Origin: Octopus vulgaris
Lineage: Eukaryota
Direction: 5' to 3'
DNA length: 64,000 bases
NCBI GenBank assembly: GCA_951406725.2
Contig: OX597827.1
Coordinates: 13,950,001-14,014,000 of the forward strand
The position numbers were made by a program, and so were the translations under genes. The notes under the pieces were generated by a model. The model had not been told where the DNA came from and made no database searches. It saw nothing but the letters and a program-made list of their open reading frames with translations. Below are positions 1,391 through 50,716 of this stretch, one piece after another (within the stretch, counting starts at the first letter, position 1; each line of letters opens with the position of its first letter).

Positions 1391-1418
1391 GTATATGTAC
1401 ATGTGTATTTATATATTT

Positions 1419-1452
<34 letters not shown>

Positions 1453-2019
1453 GAATAAAGAGCTCAAAAGATAAAGTTATAGAGTGAAAGAGGGAAGAAT
1501 GAGAGAAGTGAGAGAAAAAGGGACACAGCAAAAAGAAAAAGAAAAACAATTCCTCCACCCCATCCCAAAAAAAAACAAAAAAAAACAGAAAAGAATTTTT
1601 GTAACTGGGGAAAGAGAGAGTATGAGATTATAAGATAGATGGGAACAGAATCAGGAAACCAAAAAAAGAAAAAAAAAAATACAGGGAGACACAAGAAAAG
1701 AGAAAAAAAAAGGGAAAAATTTCCTGGCTTCATTTTTTTTGTTTTTTTATTTTTTACAGATGGACAAGAAGAGAAAGAGAAAGTGAAAGTAAAAGAGAAT
1801 GAGAGAAAAATACGATAGACGGAAGTAAGAAGGAAAAGGAAAAAAAATATGGAAAGAAAAGAGAGGGAACAAAAGAGCAAAAGAATGACCAAGAAGGAGA
1901 AAGAAAGGACAGGAAGTAGAGGGAGATGAGAGAGTCCTGTTGTTCCCTTCCAATTGGACATTGGACAGATTGATTTGATGTTTCCAATTGTGTTGGACTT
2001 GGACAGAGAGTTTCAATCT

Positions 2020-2765
2020 ATATAATGAGTAGTAGTGGTGTGTAGGGGCAATAGATGCAAAGATGATGTTGTTGTTGTTGCTGTGGTTGTGGTGGTGGTG
2101 GTGGTGGTGGTGGTGGATATAGTAATAGTAATATATATGGTGGTGATGATGTTAGGGATGGTAGTGGTTATTGGTGGTTGTAGTGGTGTTGTGGTGGTGG
2201 TGGTAGTGGTGGTTATGGTGATGATAGTATTGGGAATGGTAGTGGCTATTGGTGGTTGTAGTGGTGGTAGTGCTGGTGGTGGTGGTGGTGATGGTGGTGG
2301 TGGTGATGTTGCTGGAAATGGTTGTGATAATGATGGCGGTGGTGGTGGTAGTGGTGATGATGATAATGTTGGTGATGGTGATGGTGACGATGGTAGAGGT
2401 GGTGGTGATGATGAAGATGATGATGATGATGGTAACAGTATCAGTAGTTGGTAGTGGCAGTGGTAGAGGTGATGATGATGATGGTAATAGTGGTAGTAGT
2501 GGTGGTGGTGGTGATGATGATGATGACAATGGTGGTGTTCATAGGTACAGCGGAGGTGGTAGTAGTACAAGATGAAGATAGCAGTGGTGTAAATTGAGAT
2601 TGTGATGCTGGACTACTTAAAATGCAAATTGTTGCAGTACCAGTGGTAGTGCTCCTATAAGTGGTGGTGGTGGTGGTGGCAGCAGTGGTGGTGGTGGTGG
2701 TGGTAGTGGTGGTGTCAGCAAGAGTATTTCTAGTAATGGTGTAACTGAAGATTGTGGTCAAGATA

Positions 2766-2819
<54 letters not shown>

Positions 2820-3023
2820 GTGATGAGGATGATGATAAGGAGGAAGGTGATGACACCTATAATGAGGGTAATTGCAACGCAATCTACAACAACAATAACG
2901 ATGAAAGTTAAGGTAGCTGTGGCAGTGGTTTGTGAGGATGGTGGTGGTGGTGGTGGTAGTGGTGGTGGTGGTTGTAGTGGTGATAGTTGTGAGTGTGGTG
3001 TTAATAATAATTTCAAGAATAAA

Positions 3024-3065
<42 letters not shown>

Positions 3066-3418
3066 ATCGATGATGGTGATGATGATGCTGATGGGGATGA
3101 TGATAAAGATAGTGGTGGTGATGATGATGATGATGATGGTGGTGGTTGTAGTAGTGATGATGATGGTGGTGGTGGTAGTGATGATGACGGTGGTAGCAGT
3201 TTTGGTGATCATGATGATGATGATGATGATGATGATAATGGTGATGATGATGATGATGATGATGATGACAGAGTAGAAGTTGTTGCTGTTGTTGCTGGTG
3301 GTGGTAGTGGTGCTGGTGCTTGTGTTGGTGGTGATGATGATGATGATGATGACAGAGTAGTAGTTGCTGTTGTTGTTGTTGTTGTTGCTGGTGGTGGTAG
3401 TGGTGTTGGTGATGGAGG

Positions 3419-3454
<36 letters not shown>

Positions 3455-3570
3455 CAATGGCGGCAACGAGGAGGAGGAGGATGACGAAGATAATTCTGAT
3501 GTCAATGATGTTGATATTGATGCTGATGTTGATGCTGATGTTGATGCTGATGCTGATGTTGACAAGAGAA
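2020..3570. repeat. Compound trinucleotide low-complexity tract (GGT/GAT/GTT)n
   Basis: Direct reading; it generates the poly-V/D/M/T ORFs in the track. Confidence 0.95.
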
Positions 3571-3814
3571 ATAATAAAAAAAAAAACCCCGAAAGAGTGC
3601 AGAACAACATGCTGTGTTGCTTGCTTTATGGAAGAGAGGAAAAGATGCCTGATTTCTGGATACAGTCTTAACTATTACTATTCAACCGATGCCATCTCTG
3701 TGGGTAGTACCACACAGATATGAGAAGTTCGATCTAAGACATTCGAAACTGACTGAATAGCATTAATTTATTCATGAAATAACAATGAGAATGGAAGATC
3801 AAATTGTTAATCAA

Positions 3815-3938
3815 ATTATTATTATTATCATCTTTATTATCATTATCATTATTATTATTGTTATTGTTGTTATTATTGTTGTTGTTGTTGTTGTTGTTAT
3901 CATCATCATCATCATCATCATTATTATTATTATTATTA

Positions 3939-3990
<52 letters not shown>

Positions 3991-4166
3991 CATTATTATT
4001 ATTATTATTATTACTATTACTATTATTATTATTATTATTATTTGTATCATCACCTTCATTATTATTATTATTATTACTATTATTATTATTATTATTATTA
4101 TTTGTATCATCACTTTCATTATTATTATTATTATTATCATTATTATTATTATTATTATCATTATTA

Positions 4167-4203
<37 letters not shown>

Positions 4204-4205
4204 TA
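3815..4205. repeat. (ATT/ATC)n microsatellite
   Basis: Direct reading. Confidence 0.95.
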
Positions 4206-4657
4206 CTCTTCTTCATCTTTTTCTCCCTTTTCTACTTTGTCATATTCTTCTTTTCCTTCTCCCCCCACCCACCCCAGGATAGCGTTCATTTTCTATTTTA
4301 TCATACTATTCGAATCTAAGATTCCATACAGAAAATATCAAATTGGCTCCAGTGCCTGACGTGTACTTTATTTTATTGACCGCGGAAGGAGGAAAAATGA
4401 AGTTGCTCTCTGTCAATATTATAACCATGTCATTTTGAAAAAACAAACATTTATCTATTTATTTATTTATTTATTTATTGCCAGTTCCAGTTTCCATCGA
4501 GGAAAGAGGATGAGAGTCATCTGAAGGATGAGGTGTTATACTGTACAGTATTGCAGACAAAGGAAACGGTGAGATAAGGTGAATGTTGTCAGTATAATAA
4601 GAAGAAGGAACAACCAATCAGTATTTTTGGCAGAAAAATTAAAACTTTACAAAATAA

Positions 4658-16786: not shown

Positions 16787-17130
16787 CCATGCCGGTGGCA
16801 AGTAAAAAGCACCATTTGAGTGTGATTGTTACCAGTGTCACCTTACTGGGACTTGTGCCAGTGGCACATGAACAAAGCATTCGAGCTTAAAAAACACCAT
16901 TTTGAGCATGGCCGTTGCCAGTACTGCCTGACTGGCCCCCATGCCAGTGGCACGTAAAAGCACCCACTACACTCTCGGAGTGGTTAGCATTAGGAAGGGC
17001 ATCCAGCTGTAGAAACTCTGCCAGATCAGATTGGAGCCTGGCACAGCCATCTGGTTCGCTGGTCCTCAGTCAAATCGTCCAACCCATGCTAGCATGGAAA
17101 GCGGACGTTAAACGATGATGATGATGATGA
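16787..17130 (+). mobile_element. RTE 3'-UTR-only copy with repeated GTGCC-nnn-GGCAC-GTAAAAGCACC motifs and (GAT)n tail
   Basis: Homologous to the LINE tail at 48900-49160. Confidence 0.85.
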
Positions 17131-17744: not shown

Positions 17745-19205
17745 ACTGCCTCTTATATTTCATAATGCAAGTACATTTGTATGAATAAATACATAAGGTA
17801 CTTAGTTCTCTTTCCATTTATGTTTTTGATAATATTTGTAAATTCTCTGTTAATAAATGATGGCTTGGAAAAATATGTAAGTTCTCAGAAAGCAGTTCTA
17901 CAACTAGCTTTTAATTCCAATCACAACCATCTCATTTACGCAGCTACTACCTCAGAGAAAGTCATATGCATCACAATTTCTTTTCATTAAAATTCAAAGA
18001 TATCGTATCTAAATAAGAAATTGGTACTCAATAAACAAAGATTTTTCCAAATTAATTTTCTACTTTTCTTTAGATTTTATTTTTATTCCCCCACCCCAAA
18101 ACACCCAACCACCCTCCCAACCTACGAATGCAGAATAGCAGAATGAAATTATTTTGAAGCTCAGTTTCAAACCGGAGGAAGAAGAGATTTAGAACAGATA
18201 ATATGCGAAGCTTTAATACACACAGTCAATGCAAAATGGAACATTCCTAAATATCAAACTAAAACTGATCTATTCTTATGAGAAAAGACATATGTTGGAA
18301 TAACAGAAGACATAAAAAAAACAAAAAAAGAAAAATCAAATACAAAAAATAAAAATCATATATTGCAAACAGAACGATGTTTCTATACTAATCAAAGAAA
18401 CTGCAAGGAAACTCAAGAAAATCAACGAAGCTATCTGTATGTTTAGCACAAGCTGCAAATGGAATCAATATGCTCAATGCAGATTTCAGAACAAGTATGG
18501 CTACCATTATTGAACTGGATTCCAATATTCTTTTCTTCTTCTTTACTGGTTTCAGTCACTGGAGTGCGGCCATGCTGGGGCACTACCCGAAAGGATTTTT
18601 GGTGAGTCATAATCACCTCAATACGTAATTTTAAGACTGGTTCTTATTTTAACAATGATTGTTTGTTGCACTGTTAAGTTAAGGAATATAAACTGCTACA
18701 ACATAAGCACAACACTGGCTAACTGGTGTCGATATAAAGAAGAAGTATGTGTATACATTTATACATATATGCATATGCACACATATGCACATACATACAT
18801 ACACACATATAAACATACATTCATACATGCATACACATGTATACATGTATATATGTATACTTTATATATATACATATTTTAGTGGTAAAGAATTAGTTGA
18901 TCATATTGCACCAGTACTTGGCTGGTACCTTATTTTACTGACTCTGAAAGGATTAATGGCTAAGTTGACCTTGGTAGAATTTAACTCAGAATATAAAGAG
19001 TTACAAAAAAAAATACAGGTTTGAAGCCTGAAATTTGAAGACGTGAAACGATCATGAATATATTCATTCCCATTATGAAATTTAATTTGATAATAGCATA
19101 ATAATAATAATATTAATAATAATAATAATAATAACAATAATGATAATAATAATGGTAATAATGATGACGATGATGATAATGATAATAATAATGATAATAA
19201 TAATG

Positions 19206-19242
<37 letters not shown>

Positions 19243-19356
19243 TGATGATGATAATGATAATAATAATGATAATAATAATAATAATGACGATGATGATAAA
19301 GATAATAATAATAATAACAATAATAATGATGATGATGATGATGATGATAATAATAA

Positions 19357-19572
19357 GGATTCAAAATTTTGTCACATGGCCAGCAATTTGGAGGAAGTGG
19401 GTAAGTTGATTACATTGACCCTAGTACTCAACTGGTACTTACTTTATCAACCCCAAAAAAGATGAAAGGCAAAGTAGAACTCGGCAGAATTTGAACTCAG
19501 AACGTGAAGGCAGATAAACTGCTGTCAAGCATTTCGCCCAGCATGCCAACAATTCTGCCTGCTCATCGCCTT
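19357..19572 (-). mobile_element. SINE family B copy between (AAT/GAT)n and (GAT/GGT)n tracts
   Basis: Reverse complement of the B consensus. Confidence 0.75.
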
Positions 19573-19586
19573 AATGATGATGATGG

Positions 19587-19644
<58 letters not shown>

Positions 19645-19649
19645 GGTGA

Positions 19650-19683
<34 letters not shown>

Positions 19684-19697
19684 GGTGGTGGTGGTGG

Positions 19698-19743
<46 letters not shown>

Positions 19744-19754
19744 GATGATGGTGG

Positions 19755-19822
<68 letters not shown>

Positions 19823-19832
19823 TTGATGATGG

Positions 19833-19871
<39 letters not shown>

Positions 19872-20834
19872 CGATGATGATGATGATGATGATGACGATG
19901 ATGATGATGATGATGATGTTGATGATGTTGATGATGATGATGATGACGATGATAGTAATAAAAGAAGTTTACAGTTTGCTAAATGAACCTTGAGTTTTAA
20001 GTTTCCAATCTCACCAAAATCTATTCCATAGTTTACATGAAAAACAAACAAACAAAAAAAAAAAAAGAAAGGAAAAAAGAACAAAAGATTTTGCGAGATA
20101 GACAATGTAATGAGATATAAGCCTTAATCTAAGCAGAATCTATGAATTACTGATTGTATAAGTGAGACACACCCACAATCAAAAATGTTCCAAGTGTTAC
20201 AGGAATTGATTAACAATCTATATAACCTTACAATCAAGCAAGAGAAATGCAGACAAATATCATAGAGAGGCAGTAGAAAATAATACCTTCCTAATGAAAA
20301 TATAAAAGATATGAAAAACAAAAAATGAATATTTTTAAAAGTTATGATTAGATTCATTGTCACAGACTTAAAAATCAAAATATCAAACTTGAGATGGCTG
20401 ACAGCAATTAATGTGTCACTAACAAGTCAACCAGGCAGAAATGTATATATATACTGCTTGTTGTTCAAATATATTTCCTTTGTTTGTTGTTTGTTGTTTG
20501 TTGTCTTTTTACATATTTCTACCTTCGTTTGTATATTCTTTTATTCATTTCTGTCATTAGATTGCTGCGATTCAGGGGCAACGCCTCGAAGTGTTTAGTC
20601 AGTCCAAATTGACCACGGAACTTATTTTAAGTTTCATGGTACTTATTCTATCAGTTTTTTATGTTTTACTAATAGAATAACAACCAGATTTATTCTATTG
20701 CCATAAACAAACCAACACAAGTTGTCAAGTGGTGAGGGACAAATAAATACACTCTGCACACACATACATGTATACACAAACAATAAAGACTTAAATACTT
20801 GCATGTGTGTGTGTATATATAAATATATATATAT

Positions 20835-24039: not shown

Positions 24040-24773
24040 TTAAGACCTGTTGGGGCAAGTGAAATCGGAATCGAAATTGAACCAATCCTATGACTGGCAC
24101 CTGGCAGTTGCCAGGACCACTGGACTGACTCCTGTGCAGGTGGCAAGTGAAGAAACACCATTTCGACCCTGTGCTTGAGGAGATCCATTGAGTCAAGTAT
24201 ACCAACATCAAAACCAATGGAAACTGCAGTTGTGATCCCTGTGTCGGTGGCACGTAAAAGGCACCATCTGAACGTGGCCGATGCCAGCGCCACCTAGACT
24301 GGCTTCCAGGGCCGCTGGACTGACTCCTGTGCAGGCGGCAAGTGAAGAAACACCATTTCGACCCTGTGCTTGAGGAGATCCATTGAGTCAAGTACACCAA
24401 CATCAAAATCAATGGAAACTGCAGTTGTGATCCCTGTGTCGGTGGCACATATAAAAGAAGGATCTGAACATGGCCGATGCCAGCGCCACCTTGACTGGCT
24501 TCCATGCCGGTGGCACGTAAAAAGCACTATCCGAATCATGGCCGATGCCAGCGCTGCCTTGACTGGCTTCCGTGCCAGTGGCACGTAAAAAGCACCCACT
24601 ACACTCACGGAGTGGTTGGCGTTAGGAAGGGCATCCAGCTGTAGAAACATTGCCAGATAAGACCGGAGCCTGGTGCAGCCTTCTGGCTTCCCAGATCCCC
24701 AGTCAAACCGTCCAACCCATGCTAGCATGGAGAACAGACATTAAACGATGATGATGATGATGATGATGATGAT
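24040..24773 (+). mobile_element. Long RTE 3'-tail copy with six hairpin-motif units and an internal ~195-bp duplication
   Basis: Motif units at about 24132, 24239, 24327, 24434, 24503 and 24571; (GAT)n tail. Confidence 0.85.
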
Positions 24774-25786: not shown

Positions 25787-26380
25787 ATCATCATCATCAT
25801 CATTGTTTAACGTCCGTTTTCCATGCTAGCATGGGTTGGACGGTTCGACCGGGGTCTGGGAAGCCAGGAGGCTGCGCCAGGCTCCAGTCTGATCTGGCAG
25901 TGTTTCTACAGCTGGATGCCATTCCTAATGCCAACCACTCCGTGAGTGTAGTGGCTGCTTTTTACGTGCCACCCACACAGGGGCCAGAGGAGGCTGGCAA
26001 TCGGCCACGATAAGTTGGTGCTTTTTATGTGTCACCAACACAGACGCCAGTCAGGCGGCGCTGGTATCAGCCACGTTCGAATGGTGCTTTTTACATGCCA
26101 CCAGCACAGGTATCACAACTACAATTTCCATTCGATTTTTATTTTGATGTTGATGTTGATGTACTTGACTCAATAGGTCTCCTCAAGCACAGCAGGTCAC
26201 CCTACGATCCAAGGTTAGCACAGCAGGCCATCCTGCAAGCCATGAACTCACTTCATTTATCGGGTCTTCGCAGTCACAGCATATCTCAGAGGTCTCAGTC
26301 TTTCCTCATTTCCTCTGTGAGGCCTAACATGCCACCAGCATGGGTATCACAACTACAATATCCATTTGATTTATATTTTG
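25787..26380 (-). mobile_element. RTE 3'-tail copy inserted into a piggyBac-like MITE
   Basis: (ATC)n tail followed by the reverse complement of the RTE tail; MITE halves at about 25720-25787 and 26380-26535. Confidence 0.75.
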
Positions 26381-45409: not shown

Positions 45410-46240
45410 CTGGCATGGGTTGAATGGTTTGACCAGTGCCGGCGAGCTGGCAGAACCGTTAGCATGTCGGACGAAATGTGTAGCCGTATTTTGTCTGCCG
45501 TTACGGTCTGAGTTCAAATCCCGCTGAGGTCGACTTTGCCTTTCATCCTTTCGGGGTTGATTAAATAAGTACCAGTTACGCACTGGAGTTGATGTAATCG
45601 AGTTAATCCGTTTGTCTGTCCTTGTTTGTCCCCTCTGTGTTTAGCCCCTTGTGGGTAGTAAAGAAATAGGTTTGACCAGTGCTGCACCAGACTCCAGTCT
45701 AACTTAGCATGGTTTCTATGGCTGGGTGCCCTTCCTAATGCCAACCACTTTACAGAGTGGGTTGAGTGCTCTTATATGGCACTTCATGGGTTGTTTTTAT
45801 GTGGCACCACACAGGTGCTTTTATGTAATGCCACATTGGTACTTTTACATGGTACCACATGGGTGCTTTTACATGACACTGCATGGGTGCTTTTATGTGG
45901 TGCCACCACGAGAATCATCATCATCATCATCATCATCGTTTAGCGTCCACTTTCCATGCTAGCATGGATTGGATGGTTCAACTGGGGTCTGGGAAGCCAG
46001 AAGGCTGCACCAGGCCCAGTCTGATCTGGCAGTGTTTCTACAGCTGGATGCCCTTCCTAACACCAACCACTCCGTGAGTGTAGTGGGTGCTTTTTATGTG
46101 CCACCGACACAGTTGCCAGATGGGGCTGGCAATGGACACGATCGGATGGTGCTTTTTACATGCCACCGGCACAGAGGTCCGTCGGGGCGGCGCTGGCAAT
46201 GGTCACGTTCGGATGGTTCACTTACATGCCACCGGCACTG
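45410..46240 (-). mobile_element. Two adjacent RTE 3'-tail copies, the first interrupted by SINE B
   Basis: Tail motifs; short-period motif repeats at 45770-45910; (ATC)n at about 45914. Confidence 0.8.
45440..45668 (+). mobile_element. SINE family B
   Basis: 14-bp TSD ggtttgaccagtgc at 45426-45439 and 45669-45682. Confidence 0.9.
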
Positions 46241-46717
46241 GTAATATATATATCAAAAAGGATCAAAGGTTCTTTCAGAACCACAAACACGTAAGGTTGG
46301 TTTCCCAGATTCTGTGGTGTAGATATTCCCTGCTTGGATGGATTGCCAGTCCATTGCACAATTATTCATTTTTTCCAGAACAGCAGCAATTTGAAATGAA
46401 GTGTCCCTTAAATAGTATCAAAAGAGGTACTGGTATTGAAACTAAGTTAACTTAAGGACAACCATCATTGATGACTGAGGTTATCAACACGACTTTTGGC
46501 CAAGACTCTTATAACAACTCCAAGCACTTACTCTTTTACTTTACTCTTTTACTTGTTTCAGTCATTTGACTGCGGCCATGCTGGAGCACCACCTTTTTAG
46601 TCGAGCAAATCGACCCCAGGACTTATTCTTTGTAAGCCTAGTACTTATTCTATCGGTCTCTTTTGCCGAACCACTAAGTAACGGGGGCGTAAACATACCA
46701 GCATCGGTTGTCAAGCG

Positions 46718-46747
46718 ATGTTGTGGGGGACAAACACAAACACGCAA

Positions 46748-46805
<58 letters not shown>

Positions 46806-48928
46806 GGGCCTGGAAAGCCTGGAAGGATGGGGGCAGCAGGGAACTGTACCAGATAGCCAAAAGGAAGGCTGGGCGGCAGGTATACATAGCCAAAGACGTA
46901 GCAGAAAAGAAGAAGTTTGCCAATGTCCAGCGACGCGAGGATCAAAGAGCTGAAGTATTTCGGATTGCCAGACAGTGTGTCAGAGAAAATAGTGATGTTA
47001 TAGGAGAGAAATGTGTCCGCATGGATGATGGGGCACTTGCTTTTACTGCTAGTGAAAAGAAAGAGGCTTGGAGAAGCCATTATGAAAGACTGCTGAATGA
47101 GGAGAATGAATGGGAGGAGGAGAGCCTGCCAAATGTTGACCCAGTAGAGGGACCAGCTACCCGAATAGACAGCTCCCTTGTAGATAAGGCAATTAAGGAT
47201 ATGAAACCAGGTAAAGCCCCTGGCCTATCAGGAATCACTGCTGAGATGCTTAAAACAGCTGGCTATGTGGGCTATACCATAGTCACCCGCATTGTAAACC
47301 AGGTAGTTCACAATGGAGTCATACCCAATGACTGGTGCAGCAGCACCATAGTCAACTGCTACAAGAGTAAGGGTGATGCTCTAGATAGAAATAACTACAG
47401 AGGTATCAAACTGTTGGACCAGGTGATGAAGGTCTCAGAGAAGGTCATAACCCATCTCATTAGGGAGAGAATTTGTTTAGATGAAATGCAGTTCGGTTTT
47501 GTACCAGGTAGAAGCACCACTGATGCTATATTCCTGGTCCAACAACTGCAGGAGAAGTACCTAGCTAAAGATAAACCCCTCTACATAGCTTTTGTAGACT
47601 TGGAGAAAGCCTTTGACAGGGTTCCCCGTTCCCTCATCTGGTGGTCGATGCGGAAACTGGAGATTGAAGAATGGTTAATAAGGGCTGTACAGGCTCTATA
47701 CAGAGAGGCTGTCAGCAAGGTTAGGATTGGCAACGAATATAGTGAAAAATTCTGGGTAGAAGTAGGTGTGCACCAGGGCTCAGCCCTCAGTCCCCTTTTA
47801 TTCATCATAGTCCTTCAGGCAATAACAGAGGAATTCAAAACGGGATGCCCCTGGGAGCTCCTCTATGCCGATGACCTAGCTCTCATAGCAGAATCACTAC
47901 CGGAACTAGAAGAGAAATTTCGGGTGTGGAAGCAAGGGTTGGAATCAAAGGGCCTTAGAATAAATGTAGCAAAGACCAAAGTATTAGTAAGCAGCAAGAG
48001 GTACTCAGCACACACACCCTCGGGTAGGTGGCCCTGCTCAATCTGTAGGAAAGGTACAGGTAGAAACTCCATAAGATGCACCCAATGTAAGTTATGGACA
48101 CATAAGAGGTGCAGCAACATTAAAGGGAAATTAACAGATAAGATAGCTTTCATGTGCGGCAGATGCACAGGGACAATAGACACAACAGACACTCAGAAAA
48201 CAGATTCCATCACACTCCAGGGAGAGAAACTAGAAGTAGTTGATAGTTTCCGCTACCTGGGTGACCAAGTTAGTAGCGGAGGTGGATGCACAGAGAGTAT
48301 CACCACTAGAATACGAATAGCCTGGGCAAAGTTCAGAAAGCTCCTACCCCTACTGGCAACAAAAGGTCTCTCCCTCAGAGCGAAAGGTAGGTTGTATGAT
48401 GCATGTGTGCGAACTTCCATGCTTCACGGTAATGAAACATGGGCAGTGACTGCAGAGGACATGCGTAGACTTGAAAGAAATGAAGCTAGCATGATCCGCT
48501 GGATGTGTAGTGTCAGTGTGCACGCAAGACAGAGTGTAAGCATCCTAAGAGAAATGCTGGATATAAGAAGCATCAGATGTGGTGTGCAAGAGCGACACTT
48601 GCGATGGTATGGTCATGTGCTGCGGATGGATGAAGAGAGATGTGTGAAGAAGTGCCACTCCCAAACAGTTGAAGGTATCAGGGGGAGAGGTAGACCCAGG
48701 AAGACATGGGATGAGGTAGTCAAGCATGACCTCAGAGCATTGGGCCTCACTGAGGCAATGGCGAAAGACCGAGATCTCTGGAGATATGCTGTGACTGCAA
48801 AGACCCGGGCTGCTTTCTGCAGCAATTCCACATACCCCCTACCCATTCAAAGTACCCCGGATCCCCAAAGTACCCCGGATCCCCAAAGTACCCCGGACCC
48901 AGTTGCCCCCGTGCCGCTGGCACGTTAA
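46718..48928 (+). CDS. RTE-clade reverse transcriptase with an internal PHD-type zinc finger; the first ~29 codons derive from the SINE and microsatellite
   Basis: Motifs KAPG, NYRGIKLL, QFGF, FVDLEKAFD, GVHQGSALSPLLF, YADD (47864-47875), FRYLG, LRWYGHV, RGRGRPRKTW; no internal stops. Confidence 0.92.
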
Positions 48929-49160
48929 AAGCTCGAACCGATCGCGACCAATGCCGGACCCCCTGGCCCCTGTGCAGGTGGCACGTAAAAGCACCCAATC
49001 CACTCACGGAGTGGTTGGCGTTAGGAAGGGCATCCAGCCGTAGAAACTCTGCCAAATCAGACTGGAGCCTGGAGCGGCCCCTGGCTTTCCAGACCCCGGT
49101 CGAACCGTCCAACCCGTGCTAGCGCGGAAAACGGACGTTAAACGATGATGATGATGATGA
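46805..49160 (+). mobile_element. 5'-truncated RTE-clade non-LTR retrotransposon
   Basis: RT ORF, 3' UTR and (GAT)n tail; tatacg at both junctions (46801-46806, 49161-49166) is a possible TSD. Confidence 0.92.
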
Positions 49161-49884
49161 TATACGACGGGCTTCTTTCAGTTTCCATCTACCAAATCCA
49201 CTCACAAGACATTGGTCGGCCCGGGGCTATAGCAGAAGACACTTGCCCAAGATGCCACGCAGTGGGACTGAACCCAGAACCATGTGGTTGGTTAGCAAGC
49301 TACTTACCACACAGCCACTCCTGCGCCTTGAAAAATGTTTAACAAAAGTATGCTACTAATTTTCTTATATAATGTATTTCGTGGCTTGATGTACCACTAA
49401 AGGAAACGTATAGGGCTGCACTAGTGGAAGAACTTAAATAGTGAATGCTCTCTGTATAACATAATACAAAACTTAGTGAAACCCACCGTTGATGTGGCCT
49501 GGCCATAAGTGTTGACAGAAAGGAAATGGAGCATGAGAAAAGTTGTTGAGTGATAGGATTTTCCCTGGAAAGGAAAAAAATGTGATAGGTGTAGCACGGA
49601 ATAGACATTCTGCAGGGAGGTTTATGTAGAACAAATGAATACCTTTCCAGAATAACAAGATATTGTGATCAAAGGAATTTATTATTTTGAAGAGGAAAAG
49701 CATGCATCTAAAAGAAACAGAAACCGGAAGTCAATAAACATGGATTATTATAGGAAACAACCAGGCAAAGGAAGCTATCAAGCAGCATGATATGGAAAAT
49801 GGAGACAGAAAACTATAATGTCCTTGTGCTTCCATCGCTTGTCAATAATTTTTGGTTGCTCTGGCATGAAACTGTTGGCTGCAT

Positions 49885-50716
49885 TTACTCTTTTACTCTC
49901 TTTTACTTGCTTCGGTCGTTTGACTGCGGCCATGCTGGAGCACTGCCTTTAGTCGAGCAAATCAACCCCAGGACTTATTCTTTGTAAGCCTAGTACTTAT
50001 TCTATCAGTCTCTTTTGCTGAACCGCTAAGTTACAGGGACGTAAACACACCAGCATCGGTTGTCAAGCGATGTTAGGGGTGGGAACAAACACAGACACAC
50101 AAACACACACATATATATATATATACACATATATACGATGGGCTTCTTTCAGTTTCCGTCTACCAAATCCATTCACAAGGCTTTGGTTGGCCCGAGGCTA
50201 TAGTAGAAGACACTTGCCTAAGTTGCCACGCAGTGGGATTGAACCCAGAACCATATGGTTGGTAAGCAAGCTACTTACCACACAGCTACTCCTGTGCCTA
50301 TACTCTTACTCTCTTTTACTCTTTTACTTGCTTCAGTCATTTGACTGCAGCCATGCTGAGGCACTGCCTTTAGTCGAGCAAATCGACCCCAGGACTTATT
50401 CTTTGTAAGCCTAGTACTTATTCTATCGGTCTCTTTTGCTGAACCGCTAAGTTACAGGGGCTTAAACACACCAGCATCGGTTGTCAAGCGATGTTAGGGG
50501 TGGGAACAAATACAGACACAGAAACACACACATATATATATGCACATATATACGATGGGCTTCTTTCAGTTTCCGTCTACCAAATCCATTCAGAAGGCTT
50601 TGGTCAGCTCGAGGCTATAGCAGAAGACACTTGCCCAAGTTGCCACGCAGTGGGACTGAACCCAGAACCATATGGTTGGTAAGCAAGCTACTTACCACAC
50701 AGCCACTCCTGCACCT
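49885..50716 (-). mobile_element. Two tandem SINE A copies
   Basis: 49885-50298 and 50302-50716 share private variants (ttaggggtgggaac, aagttgcc, accatatgg), which points to tandem duplication. Confidence 0.9.

Follow-up and report, generated by a model that had tools for sequence, protein, structure and literature searches.

PHD fingers carried inside the reverse transcriptase (RT) are a real, widespread and apparently undescribed variant of RTE LINEs; a curator's note on them may exist. The case analysed here lies in a window of 64,000 nucleotides of Octopus vulgaris DNA, in which an open frame holds a PHD-type module in the loop between RT motifs 6 and 7. We show below that the module is under selection and that the RT around it is unbroken.

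The Pygopus-like finger spans residues W409 to C454 of the frame (48029..48166, + strand), is inserted in the motif 6-7 loop and has a net charge of +10. An earlier note on this DNA had described a finger of exact C4HC3 spacing, with a Trp before the His and an aromatic residue before the seventh ligand, and the codons bear this out: from 48035 to 48166 (+) the ORF reads CSIC-x10-CTQC-x4-H-x2-C-x14-CGRC, with Cys codons at 48035, 48044, 48077 and 48086, the His codon at 48101 and further Cys codons at 48110, 48155 and 48164-48166 (all +), with W431 and F449 standing two residues ahead of the His and of the seventh ligand, respectively. Its placement between the motif that follows YADD and FRYLG, normally joined by a short linker, also holds. 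The RT core (Pfam RVT_1, 47387..47995, +, E 2.3e-29) includes YADD at 47864-47875 (+) and motif 6, GLRINVAKTK, at 47951-47980 (+), and the chain re-enters the RT at motif 7, FRYLG (48248..48262, +). From the K-T of motif 6 to the F of motif 7 there are 92 residues in the window ORF against 31 in RTE-2_OV, an RTE-clade LINE of the same genome (PMC9115989), so about 60 residues have been added to the loop. The Pfam scan recovered RVT_1, and it recovered PHD (PF00628) on the excised 100 aa (27.8 bits, E 2.6e-6; cut-off 24) but not on the whole ORF, where the score of 22.7 bits fell under that cut-off. C1 and RING identities were rejected, as both scored lower and under the cut-off, and a sequence search of solved structures returned PHD fingers as the nearest (PHF13, E 5e-4). 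A loose C4HC3 pattern had a single match in the six frames of the window, the finger itself. Chance origin was rejected as well, since none of 100,000 shuffles of the ORF matched the motif and the dN/dS of the finger is about 0.1. From the conservation of each ligand in 117-120 of 120 proteins (first homolog set, among the matches listed) we infer that the finger would bind two Zn ions.

The copy in the window (46804..49164, +) is a 5′-truncated member of a young, high-copy RTE-type LINE family and is 97-98% identical to the full-length copies L034, L046 and L047. Its open frame of 707 codons (46805..48928, +) encodes an N-terminal extension of the RT, the RT, the PHD finger, the thumb/wrist and a low-complexity tail; the thumb and wrist-like helical region lies at 48263..48820 (+), and the 3′ UTR (48929..49161, +) closes with a (GAT)6 tail at 49144-49161 that other copies also carry. 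The element had been called intact, which does not apply to this copy: it can be aligned to its full-length relatives from 46804 on only, it lacks the 5′ UTR and about 1,170 coding bases, that is, the whole APE endonuclease, and upstream its frame runs solely into the (AT)n tract at the 5′ junction (46764..46804). The LINE splits another repeat, which continues from about 49162 and of which an unsplit version lies at about 50070-50270. The two halves of this host repeat are 46534-46763 and 49162-49310; it recurs at 49880-50300 and 50300-50500, and its internal (AT)n or (AC)n tract is the landing site. Elsewhere in the window, very long trinucleotide tracts of the GAT, ATT and CAT types (1400-4400 and 18900-20100) give rise to spurious long frames.

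The genome searched (2.8 Gb) is an octopus genome, which a protein named as Octopus vulgaris matches at 100%; of 24,334 candidates in it, 150 matches were scored. All 150 span the finger region at 96-100% identity, and we therefore discarded the idea that the finger is an insertion peculiar to the window copy. Each of 20 long loci has a frame of 1,014-1,117 codons, APE, RT and PHD were found in both full-length copies scanned, and no ORF1 was found in the 20 long copies, in which the longest ATG frame upstream has 59 aa. All eight ligands are present in the 30 loci caught by an anchor motif, out of 48 distinct loci, and 42 of 44 copies picked by that motif have a (GAT)n tail. The window family is large and young in this genome, and with its single APE and RT frame, its lack of an ORF1 and its short tandem-repeat 3′ tail it shows traits of the RTE clade. 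It is similar to an RTE-2_OV copy over the full length (E 3e-90; 27% identity over 1,067 aa). Identity with RTE-2_OV was nevertheless rejected: five of six tested RTE-2_OV primers had no match in the family at up to 4 mismatches, the sixth had one 4-mismatch match in one family locus, an RTE-2_OV primer had 50 exact matches in the same genome, and RTE-2_OV differs in its short linker and in the C2H2 finger at its C-terminus. The paper on RTE-2_OV (PMC9115989) also includes an unnamed O. bimaculoides RTE, which may be the window family.

Several observations accompany these searches. A second PHD-bearing subfamily (L070-L081) is represented by many copies whose open frames run to about 1,060 codons; at synonymous sites it has diverged strongly from the window subfamily. 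Copies L031-L049 have a long, C-rich 5′ UTR (at least 1 kb in most of them) with short tandem repeats. Many full-length frames have no in-frame ATG ahead of the endonuclease, their first Met being residue 66-88, so translation may begin in an unusual way, or small indels may have disrupted the start. The last 200 bases of the element (48960-49164) show a summed contig depth far above that of the element body in four of four runs, and short copies of them at 83-87% identity occur six times in the window (16934-17130, 24572-24767, 25787-26034, 26261-26324, 45681-45749 and 45917-46172); both observations suggest an abundant derivative, SINE-like or heavily truncated, that the window LINE has likely mobilised. 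Contigs from the four runs span the element, and among 15 joints listed of 127 in them none removes just the finger, a result that speaks neither way on expression.

To measure selection, we compared the window subfamily with 12 natural copies of the second octopus subfamily, effectively one subfamily pair, between which about 50-65% of synonymous sites differ. Across the 12 loci dN/dS was 0.07-0.15 for the finger, 0.04-0.08 for the RT core and 0.29-0.88 for the linker on its C-side (downstream), and all eight ligands were retained in 10 of the 12 copies. Purifying selection and conservation of the Cys and His codons among copies are thereby confirmed. An AlphaFold2 model of residues 60-672, built with 141 sequences, reached a pLDDT of 93.6 and a pTM of 0.90, with the finger blocks at 91-96. 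Over its whole length, through the end of the thumb and wrist-like region, this RT-PHD model can be aligned with R2 and L1 proteins (Z 21-25, rmsd 3.4-4.6, 478-533 residues), which argues that the finger leaves the RT unbroken. A model of the finger alone (58 aa, pLDDT 81) matched PHD-bearing chains, the best of the matches listed having Z 5.4 and rmsd 3.6 over 53 aligned residues; in Foldseek it reached a TM of up to 0.68, with no match at E < 0.001. Ligand conservation, the predicted model, the structure matches and dN/dS agree in pointing to a conserved, folded PHD inside an otherwise complete RT.

Three homolog searches yielded 1,509, 642 and 1,052 matches, with 120 listed from each, and we tested 358 distinct proteins among these. 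The full C4HC3 ligand set followed the ADD motif in 343 of the 358, a count that speaks for conservation of the finger and not for its frequency, because the queries contained the finger. Named hosts among the matches listed are Hydractinia, Branchiostoma, Mercenaria, the catfish Neoarius and O. bimaculoides, and another protein is labelled Acanthocheilonema. As a finger-independent test we used the RT core alone as query. Out of 150 representatives, 15 had the full finger (12 by pattern, 3 by eye), 81 had a clean short linker, 2 were partial or garbled and 52 were truncated or unclear; no clean short linker occurred at an RT identity of at least 50% among these 150. The nearest finger-less relatives have short motif 6-7 linkers, and the large finger-less group at 41% identity is one that we take to be Rex3/Expander-like. 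The insertion is not peculiar to the octopus element and is widespread among animals.

We then built a tree of 47 chosen RT cores with the insert removed, without a non-RTE reference and rooted on RTE-2_OV by choice, not by inference. All 26 finger-bearing rows fall in one clade (99/95), together with four finger-less rows. Two changes are needed to account for gain and loss of the finger, one change suffices in only 7% of bootstrap trees, and constraining the 26 finger-bearing RTs together is not rejected (p-AU 0.265). These results fit a single ancient gain of the finger, with or without later loss. The finger-less RTEs P0259, P0261, P0267 and P0365 lie inside or beside the finger-bearing clade and are natural controls; another protein, P0471, carries a tandem pair of PHD fingers in the motif 6-7 loop (residues ~720-820). 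Since a selected zinc domain is found there in cnidarians, molluscs, lancelets and fish, the motif 6-7 loop appears to be a recurrent site for added modules.

The position of the insertion can be compared with R2. In R2Bm an insertion between RT motifs 6 and 7, termed 6a, reads an upstream motif of the target, and deletion of residues 672-677 (DGHRKK) blocks target nicking (PMC10499050); in the vertebrate elements R2Tg and R2Pm, 6a is likewise wedged into upstream DNA (PMC11601368). We could align R2Bm with a finger-less relative over motifs 5-7, weakly (E 0.0056) and anchored on both sides, and the R2Bm DGHRKK falls 9-14 residues past the K-S of motif 6 in that relative. On this weak alignment, the finger insertion would open in the loop equivalent to 6a. 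A chromatin or nucleic-acid role of the finger thereby gains a specific anchor, as the loop aligns with one that contacts target DNA in R2. Because 6a is termed R2-specific in the R2 work (PMC10499050), the finger would be a separate elaboration of the loop.

What kind of PHD finger is it? The Pygo1 and Pygo2 fingers are the top PHD profile matches (E 3e-7 to 5e-6), and a single homolog as query gives the same result; by structure of the predicted model Pygopus is also on top (Z 5.4), tied with other PHD fingers within 1. In Pygo the K4me2 cavity has W366, Y341 and D352 as walls and V350 and A356 as base, and E360 is needed, its mutant losing binding (PMC2726290). Among the matches listed, 273 of the 343 homologs retain the equivalents of Y341, V350, A356 and W366 (as Y/F/W, V/I, A/S and W) jointly, 339 retain the Trp that divides the pocket and 285 have an Ile at the I357 position; the window copy has W, T, S and W at the first four positions. 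The equivalents of D352 and E360 are acidic in just 12 of these 343 listed homologs each, and 266 have no acid between ligands 2 and 4. Nearly all fingers among the matches listed carry a positive net charge: 223 of 225 in one set (median +6) and 113 of 113 in another (median +4). An earlier exclusion of methyl-lysine binding, based on the absent cage-base Met, was abandoned after the comparison with Pygopus. Basic PHD fingers that bind DNA and not histones have been described in BAZ1A (PMC5636791), VEL proteins (PMC9640981) and BRPF2 and PHF6 (PMC6222470). VEL fingers without histone binding have lost the divider Trp (PMC9640981), which the LINE fingers keep, and this favours a real methyl-lysine ligand. 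The evidence is thus divided between DNA, favoured by the loop position and the charge, and a methyl-lysine-like ligand, favoured by the pocket.

Insertion sites were examined for a contribution of the finger. An AT run of at least 8 bases lies within 32 bases past the tail in 27 of 42 copies, a count that takes in the last AT of the tail, against a baseline of 21.6% of AT-starting window positions (p 3e-9). The finger-less RTE-2_OV sits in such tracts in 4 of 16 copies (Fisher p 0.009). The flanks of the 42 copies are AT-rich, with a median GC of 0.34 and one copy above 0.5. A correlation between RTE tails and target sites has been reported (PMC6007223), so the (AT)n preference does not implicate the finger, and we do not ascribe (AT)n targeting to it: its effect is confounded with those of the (GAT)n tail and the endonuclease, and RTE-2_OV also occurs in such tracts. 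The suggestion that an RT with a binding module could steer integration keeps its first half, a module with a plausible binding role, but not the steering, as tail and endonuclease could explain the preference.

Our preferred reading, which we hold tentatively and place a little short of probable, is that the finger is a built-in grip on target DNA, or on chromatin or a nucleosome, beside the nick during insertion. In target-primed reverse transcription the APE endonuclease would nick the target and the (GAT)n tail would pair with AT-rich DNA; the finger, by analogy with 6a in R2, would reach out of the palm-thumb hairpin to the target duplex and hold its backbone by means of conserved basic residues that follow the His (H-K-K/R-C-S-G-x-K-G-R). 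The Pygopus-type hydrophobic pocket may supply a second contact, for example with a methylated lysine, DNA contact being, on this reading, the main role, and the module would stabilise the RT on chromatin with no strict reading of sequence. The putative 6a-equivalent loop, the basic charge, the lost Pygo acids, the precedent of DNA-binding basic PHD fingers, the low dN/dS of the finger and the unbroken RT fold with a finger modelled at a pLDDT above 90 count for such a grip, whereas the kept Pygo cavity (273/343) and divider Trp (339/343), among the matches listed, the weak 6a alignment and the R2-specific status given to 6a count against it. No target motif was linked to the finger. Nor is the finger essential: the clade has four finger-less relatives within or next to it, and transposition proceeds in many RTEs that have no finger. 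A second explanation is that the finger is a true Pygopus-type histone reader: by recognising methylated H3K4, or some other methyl-lysine, it would tether insertion to marked chromatin or bias it that way. Pygo1 and Pygo2 are its best matches by profile, single homolog and structure, and the four cavity positions and the Ile are widely kept, but the acids at D352 and E360 are almost always missing, the net charge of the surface is positive, Thr takes the place of V350 in the window copy and the AT-rich flanks of 42 copies give no promoter-like sign, although selection would also purge such insertions. We regard this as possible, though on the unlikely side; DNA grip and H3K4me reading are compatible and not exclusive.

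Two further explanations were weighed. The finger may bind a protein partner, either in the host or in the RT itself, with a Lys or Arg of that partner in its pocket, or may stabilise the hairpin; on this view it has no direct part in the choice of target. Non-ligand surface residues (P, G-V-G, N-S-I, W) are indeed far more constant than the linkers, mean column conservation is 0.60-0.67 against about 0.5, the pTM of 0.90 of the whole-protein model is compatible with packing on the RT, and Pygo fingers also bind a protein cofactor (PMC2726290). The tandem fingers of P0471 and the finger-less sister elements speak against this explanation, since they suggest a module that is free and not structurally required, and we consider it improbable. 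More improbable still, in our judgement, is that the finger binds the element's own RNA (3′ UTR or RNA:cDNA hybrid) in place of the missing RNA-binding ORF1. The absence of an ORF1 in the 20 long copies and the basic surface agree with it, as do PHD fingers with Pygo-like top matches in LINE ORF1 proteins (PMC4120745), but an ORF1 is absent from other RTEs too, which carry no finger, and in R2 the loop faces DNA (PMC10499050; PMC11601368). A bolder reading would be that, in an ancient lineage of animal LINEs, a Pygopus-type reader was fused into a target-touching RT loop, so that the polymerase reads histone mark and DNA jointly and picks nucleosomal sites. We rate this, like the histone reader, as possible but on the unlikely side. 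Some LTR integrases are guided by chromodomains, and joint reading of histone mark and DNA would, if true, be the LINE counterpart.

Full-text searches of the literature, which did not reach Repbase, Repbase Reports and most subscription journals, yielded no description of a LINE with a PHD in its RT. No such finger is mentioned in the available sections of PMC3849965, PMC3747384, PMC13708176, PMC6007223, PMC11203168 and PMC10294476. With regard to extent and novelty, which the earlier note had left undecided, the architecture was not found described, but the pairing of RVT_1 and PHD is already present in automatic database annotation and is widespread in animals. The alignment with the 6a loop, the Pygopus-like pocket without its two acids and the strongly basic surface are new points on the finger. 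PHD fingers are known in CR1/L2 ORF1 proteins or at the N-termini of ORF2, ahead of the endonuclease, where Pygopus structures (2vpb, 3zpv) are also the top matches and a role in genome targeting has been proposed; the same source, in the sections available, describes ORF2 structure as highly constrained and reports none inside the RT (PMC4120745). Since those fingers share the Pygopus top matches, capture of the finger from another LINE may be considered on sequence grounds. Our finding contrasts with the constrained ORF2 scaffold (PMC4120745) and with a motif 6-7 insertion confined to R2 (PMC10499050), as these sources present them. It raises a testable question, whether APE-type LINEs choose or hold their targets by more than endonuclease and tail pairing, for which the finger-less sisters and the double-finger variant are natural controls. 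RTE elements are under development as gene-insertion tools (PMC13708176), which lends practical interest to a natural, tolerated insertion point that may lie on the target side of the RT.

Compared with known systems, the window family is like other RTE-clade LINEs, RTE-2_OV included, in its single APE-RT frame, missing ORF1 and short tandem-repeat 3′ tail (PMC9115989); it differs from RTE-2_OV in that the latter joins motifs 6 and 7 by 31 residues and has its C2H2 finger at the C-terminus, whereas the family has an RT-internal PHD. CR1/L2 fingers are equally LINE-carried and Pygopus-like, but stand upstream of the endonuclease and not inside the RT. Like the Pygopus finger, the LINE finger begins with Y-P-C and has Val, Ala/Ser, Ile and Trp in the places that form the K4me cavity, yet it lacks the acid of EVND and E360, its surface is basic and not acidic, and its loop 2 is short where Pygo has a long cofactor-binding segment. 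BAZ1A, VEL, BRPF2 PHD2 and PHF6 ePHD2 resemble it in their basic surface and missing histone-binding acids; however, BAZ1A has no aromatic cage and VEL no divider Trp, both of which the LINE finger keeps, and BRPF2 and PHF6 have an atypical ligand set. R2 is alike in having an insertion in the same RT motif 6-7 loop, one that contacts upstream target DNA and is needed for nicking, but the R2 insertion is a basic loop of 6 residues, and the element around it is site-specific and uses a restriction-like endonuclease, whereas the window family has a 46-residue zinc domain, an APE endonuclease and dispersed insertions.
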